From contig JAAILG010000756.1 of assembly GCA_012026655.1 (NCBI GenBank), positions 1 to 64,000 on the forward strand: 64,000 nucleotides of DNA. Direction: 5' to 3'. Each line of letters begins with the position of its first letter. The first letter of the stretch is position 1. The notes beneath the pieces are model-generated. The model did no database searches, was not told where the DNA came from, and saw only the letters and a list, made by a program, of their open reading frames with translations. The position numbers were made by a program, and so were the translations under genes. The DNA comes from Hydrolagus affinis. Taxonomy: Eukaryota. Shown piece after piece: positions 6,086 to 7,244 of the stretch.

Positions 6086-7185
6086 TCCCACTCTATTTTA
6101 ACTCTATGTCATTGCATTTTGTGTAATTAGGTTACAAAACATCTCATGTTGTAAGAATGTTGTTGGGTTTTATTAGACAGGAGTCAGGCTTACTCCTCCT
6201 TTCCCTTTAAATAAACTCATAGCTATTTATTGGCTAGCACAACAAATGTTTATGATGTTTGGCCTTTTTATTTGGTTTCACGCTATACTTTTTTTTCAAA
6301 TTGCAAAGTTGCACTAAAAGGACAGAGAGGAGCATTTTGGACATGTTGTGTAAAATTCACATAAATAAGTTTATAATGTCTTAAGCAAAGCACCAGGCAG
6401 AAATTACCACTGAATACAAGCACTCAGAATGACAACAATTACGACCAATATTTAGAAAAGGCGTTTCCCAAACCATTGCAGAAAAACACAACTCCGTGGT
6501 GAAGCACAAGGAAATGTGCTTTGATTAGGAACAAAAACAAAATTAAATTCAGATTTTGGGGAAATCAAATCAGACTATATTTTTGTTATAGATTTTCCAA
6601 TGGGGTTCATAAACAAAAGCAATGTTATAACATGCCAGCTAAAACTGTTGGAAGAATGTACTTTGCAGGCAAACAGGAAATGAGATGTCCTGTTCAAATG
6701 GCCAAAACAGACCCGGTGAACAGAAAATGCAGTTTCATTATCTGTGTTTATATGAGCTCTAACTGGAATCATTTAAACAGTGGTGAAGATATCATTAATA
6801 GTGGTAAACACTAGCAGCACTGAACTAAATAAGTGCTTGCATCAAGGAGTTGTGATAGCAAGGAAGGCATTAGTGCCAGGGCAAAAGAGAAGCAACGATT
6901 CAGCAGCAGAAAGAAACAAACACACAAACACACATGCTGCTTCAGGTGTGAAGACATGTGACCAATTACCCTTTTACAAATAAAAGCCGCTTAGTAAAGT
7001 GAGGGTGGAAGATTTCCAATTAGCACCAATTAGTGAGGTTGCTCCCAACACTGGAATTCTGGGACCACAAGCACCCCAGAATACCTGGTTGCCAGTTTAT
7101 TTACCAGGTGAAGGAATTCCTGAAGAATAACTTGATGAGGATTTGCGCCTGTGGGACTTGAATACAGTTACTACTTGGGACTTGC

Positions 7186-7244
7186 CTGCTCGATTTGACT
7201 GGTCAATCATGGGTTGTACTATTCTTCTTCTGGCGTTAATGAAC
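7186..7244 (-). CDS. MEIS2: Meis2 coding exon (approx. exon 10): (W)FINARRRIVQPMIDQSNRA, homeodomain helix 3 and end
   Basis: Completes WFINARRR with the previous exon. Acceptor tttcAG at 7246-7245. Non-canonical donor CAG|GCAAGT at 7185-7180. 59 nt. Confidence 0.95.

Follow-up and report, generated by a model that had tools for sequence, protein, structure and literature searches.

An intact copy of the ancestral Meis exon 10′ after the homeodomain of Meis2 in the cartilaginous fish Hydrolagus affinis

We have analysed a stretch of 64,000 nt from Hydrolagus affinis, which we call the window. It carries exons of the gene Meis2. Directly after the exon which closes the homeodomain there is an 81-nt extension which, by position and sequence, is the Meis "exon 10′" already published by Irimia et al. 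(2011; PMC3140891). This segment is ancestral coding sequence, and the window has another intact copy of it in a lineage unsampled by that study. The best explanation, which we hold with good confidence, is that exon 10′ represents 27 ancestral codons between two donors of the same phase: the GC donor mostly wins and the GT donor yields a rare isoform with 27 additional amino acids. The first-pass annotation had described a splice switch in this place. The pair of alternative donors is indeed real, but it is not new, and what had been taken for an extension is ancestral coding sequence. The longer form that it had proposed is well supported at the level of the family: it appears in annotated Meis2 and Meis1 models and has been seen by RT-PCR in vertebrates (PMC3140891).

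The features of the region are collected in Table 1. All those annotated at first are present on the minus strand as listed: the GC donor, 27 open codons, the GT donor, a TAA, the AATAAA, the sequence CAG|GTATT and the acceptors at 5402 and 5381. The assignment of the gene was also correct. It is Meis2 and not Meis1, as decided by the matches of exon 12b: 94/95 residues are identical to Meis2a of Callorhinchus milii (P0148) and 83/95 to Meis1 of Callorhinchus (tblastn), while five Meis2 proteins of sharks and rays give 91–92/95. Exons 8, 9, 10, 11 and 12b are found by tblastn in colinear order within the window. Translation of the window did not reveal exon 12a: its expected place, 260–390 nt past exon 11, is occupied by an N gap (4902–5034), and the A|GTAAGT which comes next on the gene strand (4901–4895) is likely to be its donor. 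About 1.1 kb past the stop of exon 12b there is an AATAAA (1173–1168, minus strand) with TGTA upstream and a U/GU-rich stretch downstream; from these signals it is likely to be the terminal poly(A) signal of Meis2.

Table 1. Features of Meis2 found in the window, with their positions and the basis of each assignment
Feature	Positions	Strand	Basis
Exon 8	46654..46799	minus	tblastn
Exon 9	27644..27720	minus	tblastn
Exon 10, 59 nt, end of homeodomain helix 3	7186..7244	minus	tblastn, 20/20 to Callorhinchus Meis2a P0148
Proximal GC donor CAG|GCAAGT, 8/9 consensus matches	7180..7188	minus	same 9-mer in teleost-like Meis1 locus L001
Exon 10′, 81 nt in frame, 27 aa	7105..7185	minus	sequence, peptide homology, PMC3140891
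Distal GT donor CTG|GTAAAT (GT 7104–7103), 7/9 consensus matches	7099..7107	minus	same 9-mer in L001
AATAAA over donor positions +4 to +9 and in-frame TAA (7099–7097); candidate poly(A) signal	7096..7101	minus	sequence; absent in L001
Donor-like CAG|GTATTC (GT from 7084), 6/9 consensus matches, weak	7079..7087	minus	absent in L001
Exon 11 with 21-nt 5′ extension; acceptors 5402 and 5381	5292..5402	minus	sequence; PMC3140891
Exon 12b, coding part and stop	2271..2557	minus	94/95 to P0148

Exon 10 ends at 7186 and its donor has GC at 7185–7184. The codons for Ala-Gly-Lys-Ser spell this donor, CAG|GCAAGT, which suggests that it arose within coding sequence. Past it the frame remains open for 27 codons, GKSQVVTVFKSHRRKSSSSYSSGIPSP, as far as the distal donor, 81 nt away in the same phase. 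This distal donor is likely to be the ancestral end of exon 10 plus exon 10′. A frame of 81 nt free of stops is common by itself: it is found at 11,293 of 55,688 positions (20%) in the part 7300–64000 of the window.

Irimia et al., who gave exon 10′ its name, describe it as due to an alternative 5′ splice site inside exon 10, the upstream site being GC in 46% of the genes studied. In the non-bilaterians Nematostella and Trichoplax the region lies within one exon, and all nematode transcripts include it. Inclusion in vertebrates is very low: RT-PCR needed specific primers and many cycles, with primer sets which spanned exons 10 to 11 and 11 to 12b. The segment has been lost at least six times in vertebrates. 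The authors count it as one of the most ancient cases of alternative splicing and do not settle its function; they also describe exon 11 with a 5′ extension (PMC3140891). The window shares with this system the gene family and the position, a GC donor upstream, an ancestral peptide in frame and a second donor downstream, before exon 11. It differs in being a chondrichthyan copy, since the species set of that study has no cartilaginous fish, and its main text mentions neither polyadenylation nor nonsense decay. Among the papers listed in searches of the literature it is the only one on exon 10′.

Many public models of Meis1 have the segment annotated, as do Meis2 models from shark, ray, sturgeon, turtle, bird and wolf. 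The same 27-aa insert is found at the same junction in Meis2 of bamboo shark (XP_043553936.1), stingray (XP_059811702.1), turtle (KAM9147977.1) and wagtail (XP_037992741.1), with 22–24 of 27 residues identical to the window; these are predicted models, not expression levels. The one Meis2a model of Callorhinchus examined (P0148) skips the segment, unlike these shark/ray, turtle and bird models. Models P0003, P0005 and P0137 have an exon junction at the residue of the distal donor. A junction of the segment with exon 11 at the expected residue is seen in named Meis2 models: 3 of the 15 listed members of the shark/ray cluster and 4 of the 15 listed in the reptile/bird cluster. The GKS...PGK read-through, which the first-pass annotation had mentioned for predicted Meis1 models, does exist in them (P0007 cluster). 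Open copies of exon 10′ joined to exon 11 are also found in Meis2 X13 of the wolf (P0044) and in three bird Meis2 models (P0123, P0127 and P0129), whereas PMC3140891 scored the segment as lost in mammalian Meis2 and interrupted by a stop in chicken Meis2.

The peptide is shared by distant animals. In groups picked by hand among the matches found by similarity, the 27 residues of the window are identical at 22–24 positions to Meis2 of sharks and rays (5 sequences), at 23 to sturgeon (2) and at 24 to turtles and birds (8). Chondrichthyan Meis1 has 18–20/27, hemichordates 22/27 (3 sequences), cnidarian Meis 14–18 (9) and nematodes 12–14 (5). Mammal-type copies are degenerate (14–17/27). Glycine followed by lysine or arginine comes right after exon 10 in 120/120 listed proteins (120 of the 204 matches are listed), and V6, V8, F9, K10 and K15 are common to 106–117 of them; the proteins were chosen by similarity and these counts are biased upwards. 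As a control we have taken 48 loci whose exon-10 donor is GT: their identity is 0–5/24 and a stop appears within 27 codons in 35/48. The conserved peptide is not a product of chance, as these sequence comparisons indicate, because it keeps 14–18/27 identities with cnidarian Meis against 0–5/24 in the 48 GT loci.

At the codon level we have compared the window with a Meis1 locus which we call teleost-like (L001); such labels, as well as coral-like and mammal-like, are inferred from similarity to named proteins. Codons 4–15 have pN/pS 0.26 against L001 and 0.14–0.23 against loci L002, L003 and L007, with most differences in third positions; these values come from 12 codons only, with synonymous sites near saturation. 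The serine-rich second half (codons 16–27) has pN/pS 0.67 against L001 and is less constrained, on small numbers. This substitution pattern indicates that the basic core of the peptide is under protein-type constraint. Conservation of frame and peptide in relatives, which had been put forward as a check, is found from shark to bird (22–24/27) and in the pN/pS of codons 4–15 against L001, but it breaks down in two cases: in the mammal-type copies and in Meis2a X7 of the manta ray Mobula birostris (P0070), which uses the segment with a shift of frame inside the serine run, either a true loss or an assembly error. In a search among short proteins we obtained 9 matches, none of them a Meis2 read-through extending to the distal donor, and among viral contigs none of 120 pattern matches was confirmed. 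An alternative frame (7167–7033) was rejected as coding: none of 37 candidates matched, and a search among representatives gave three matches which look repetitive and unrelated (two of the three were inspected).

The history of the donors can be followed in 80 loci; a rough rule scored 66 of them as genomic and 14 as cDNA or intronless. The loci are related and the counts are descriptive only. The exon-10 donor is GT in 50 of the 66 genomic loci, and in 0/50 of these is the peptide kept. Six genomic loci keep it. One is L001, which has GC at the first-donor position, like the window; the other five are coral-like loci (L002–L006) which have no donor: they show GA at this position and the peptide is simply part of the coding sequence. 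GGA, GGC and GGT all code for glycine. A synonymous change to GT is likely to accompany loss of the segment. The upstream GC donor would win most splicing events and give normal Meis2, while its weakness would probably leave a small share to the older GT donor downstream, the likely source of the rare isoform with 27 more residues. The GC donor is likely to be a shortcut and not the original boundary of the exon, so that a description as normal donor plus extension reverses the history. That survival of the segment goes with a non-GT donor adds a little to the published work; we have not found it stated in the main text of PMC3140891.

For the long isoform we predict that the insert forms a disordered tail, basic and rich in serine, directly after helix 3 of the homeodomain, because in the AlphaFold2 model of the shark protein P0005 (40-sequence alignment) the helix runs up to residue 345 and pLDDT is below 50 at residues 348–384. 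Between the homeodomain and the activation domain the 27 residues are likely to tune phosphorylation or the contact with DNA or with partners. We take the sequence RRKS in the peptide to fit the consensus of protein kinase A, as a putative site, and the basic patch presumably resembles a nuclear-localisation signal.

The segment might also have ceased to matter as protein in jawed-vertebrate Meis2 and survive only through an overlapping conserved non-coding element, the longer transcripts being leakage. We consider this reading rather unlikely, but several facts agree with it. Inclusion is very low and losses are many (PMC3140891), the manta ray copy is out of frame and the mammalian copies are degenerate. 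Furthermore the likeness to the mammal-like sequence P0013, as judged by eye, goes on for about 75 nt beyond the distal donor, in a frame which is not coding. The conservation of Meis2 in shark, turtle and bird could be at the DNA level, as these were compared as proteins and the DNA comparison concerns the paralog and distant loci. On the other hand sharks, sturgeon, turtles and birds have preserved the reading frame, the length and the two donors; all 8 copies from turtles and birds have 24/27 residues in common with the window, and changes against the paralog L001 are biased to third positions. The stretch which resembles the tail of P0013 (7104–7030, minus strand) suggests conserved intron sequence; an inverted repeat within it, 7085–7073 with 7065–7053, is not significant with respect to shuffles.

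We come now to the distal end of exon 10′, where donor, stop and AATAAA overlap. Why exon 10′ is conserved though rarely included was left open in PMC3140891, and this overlap bears on the question. One reading is that exon 10 plus 10′ is also a last exon. Only one of the two, U1 at the 7104 donor or the poly(A) machinery at the AATAAA which overlaps it, could then bind at a time; such a composite exon, internal and terminal, we consider unlikely. Cleavage about 10–30 nt downstream would give a Meis2 which ends in the basic tail and GK and is devoid of the activation domain, a product which we regard as equally doubtful. There is also little probability that exon 10′ owes its survival in jawed-vertebrate Meis2 to a second use as terminal exon, with the homeodomain and its basic tail acting as a natural repressor or dominant-negative form. 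If this were true, a truncated form would be added to a major family of developmental, leukaemia-related transcription factors. It would be invisible to RT-PCR from exon 10 to 11, so that the segment would appear conserved yet hardly used; the primers of PMC3140891 needed exon 11 or beyond and would miss such an end.

Composite exons with intronic polyadenylation are marked by a weak 5′ splice site, AATAAA, TGTA upstream and a GU-rich stretch downstream. Candidates for these are present in the window: a weak GC donor upstream, an AATAAA which covers positions +4 to +9 of the distal donor, a TGTA (7167–7164) and a GU-rich stretch downstream. However, the AATAAA is absent in some relatives which keep the peptide. 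Donor-bound U1 generally suppresses poly(A) sites nearby, which also speaks against an end in this place. An upstream TGTA with an equally GU-rich downstream stretch is found in 3 of the 75 AATAAA sites on the gene strand, this one counted, by criteria chosen after looking. The TGTA is forced by the conserved codons for Thr-Val-Phe and is also present in L001. This locus keeps both donor 9-mers and the peptide; it has no stop in that place and no third donor, and neither AATAAA nor ATTAAA occurs in it up to 300 nt from the distal donor.

Among 29 listed proteins with GK or GN we have set aside 10 of invertebrate type (9 of one cluster type and 1 nematode). The 19 vertebrate-type read-throughs which are left end at GK in only 9 cases, a protein end at GK being taken as a stop, and continue as GKY in 8, as GKW in 1 and as GNK in 1; an in-register AATAAA is ruled out in 9/19. 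Of the three mammal-like Meis2 read-throughs two (P0022 and P0061) do end at GK, in favour of the terminal reading, and in the third, P0013, the sequence G-N-K would fit an AATAAA kept after loss of 1 nt. Stops are common after GTAAAT because the T at donor position +6 opens the next codon: on the gene strand an in-register stop follows at +6 in 14/36 such hexamers and AATAAA in 4/36, this site counted. AATAAA is present in 549 of 5,561 stretches of 102 nt. None of the three, stop, AATAAA or third donor, is far from the background rate. The TAA, the AATAAA and the 7084 site are likely to be by-products of the donor sequence GTAAAT and of chance, and the same is more likely than not for the truncated and decay forms which the first-pass annotation had proposed. 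As to intronic polyadenylation in MEIS1 or MEIS2, the titles and the beginning of the abstracts of the papers listed gave nothing relevant, and the passages of PMC12946277 which were consulted deal with exons 1 and 12 only.

The third donor, at 7084, could be imagined as a regulated poison donor which sends Meis2 mRNA to nonsense-mediated decay. Its use would put the TAA 12 nt before the junction and more than 55 nt before the later ones, and decay is predicted by the 50-nt rule for a stop so far upstream of later junctions. Even so we find this reading highly improbable. The site has only 6/9 consensus matches, and a motif [AC]AG|GT[AG] is expected 0.11 times per 102 nt. No donor after the stop is conserved in the two sequences compared: L001 lacks it and the codons of P0013 imply GA, not GT, at the matching place. 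Moreover the site is the reverse complement of the arm of the 7104 donor in a non-significant stem of 7 bp. From these comparisons it is likely that the 7084 site is not a maintained donor. The stem itself, which pairs the 7104 and 7084 sites with the AATAAA in the loop, was rejected as an RNA structure: its z values are −0.64 (101 nt; 56 of 200 shuffles are as stable) and −0.25 (211 nt), and L001 has no such stem.

In intron 7 of Meis2, positions 61511–61461 of the minus strand contain a 51-nt in-frame cassette exon (AG...G|GTCAGT) which codes for 17 aa, all of them identical (17/17) in the Callorhinchus model. Thirteen chondrichthyan Meis2 models have an insert here: ten with the same peptide and three from skates which differ in one residue. 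Such near-perfect conservation may be at the protein or at the DNA level. Lineage-specific exons between exons 7 and 8 have been reported only for arthropods (PMC3140891). A different insert of 34 aa is found at the same junction in 14 models of reptiles and birds. It is also present in two Meis2 models, P0131 (crocodilian, 366 aa) and P0134 (amphisbaenian, 336 aa), which as models are likely to be homeodomain-truncated forms, because the motif of exon 10 is absent in them.
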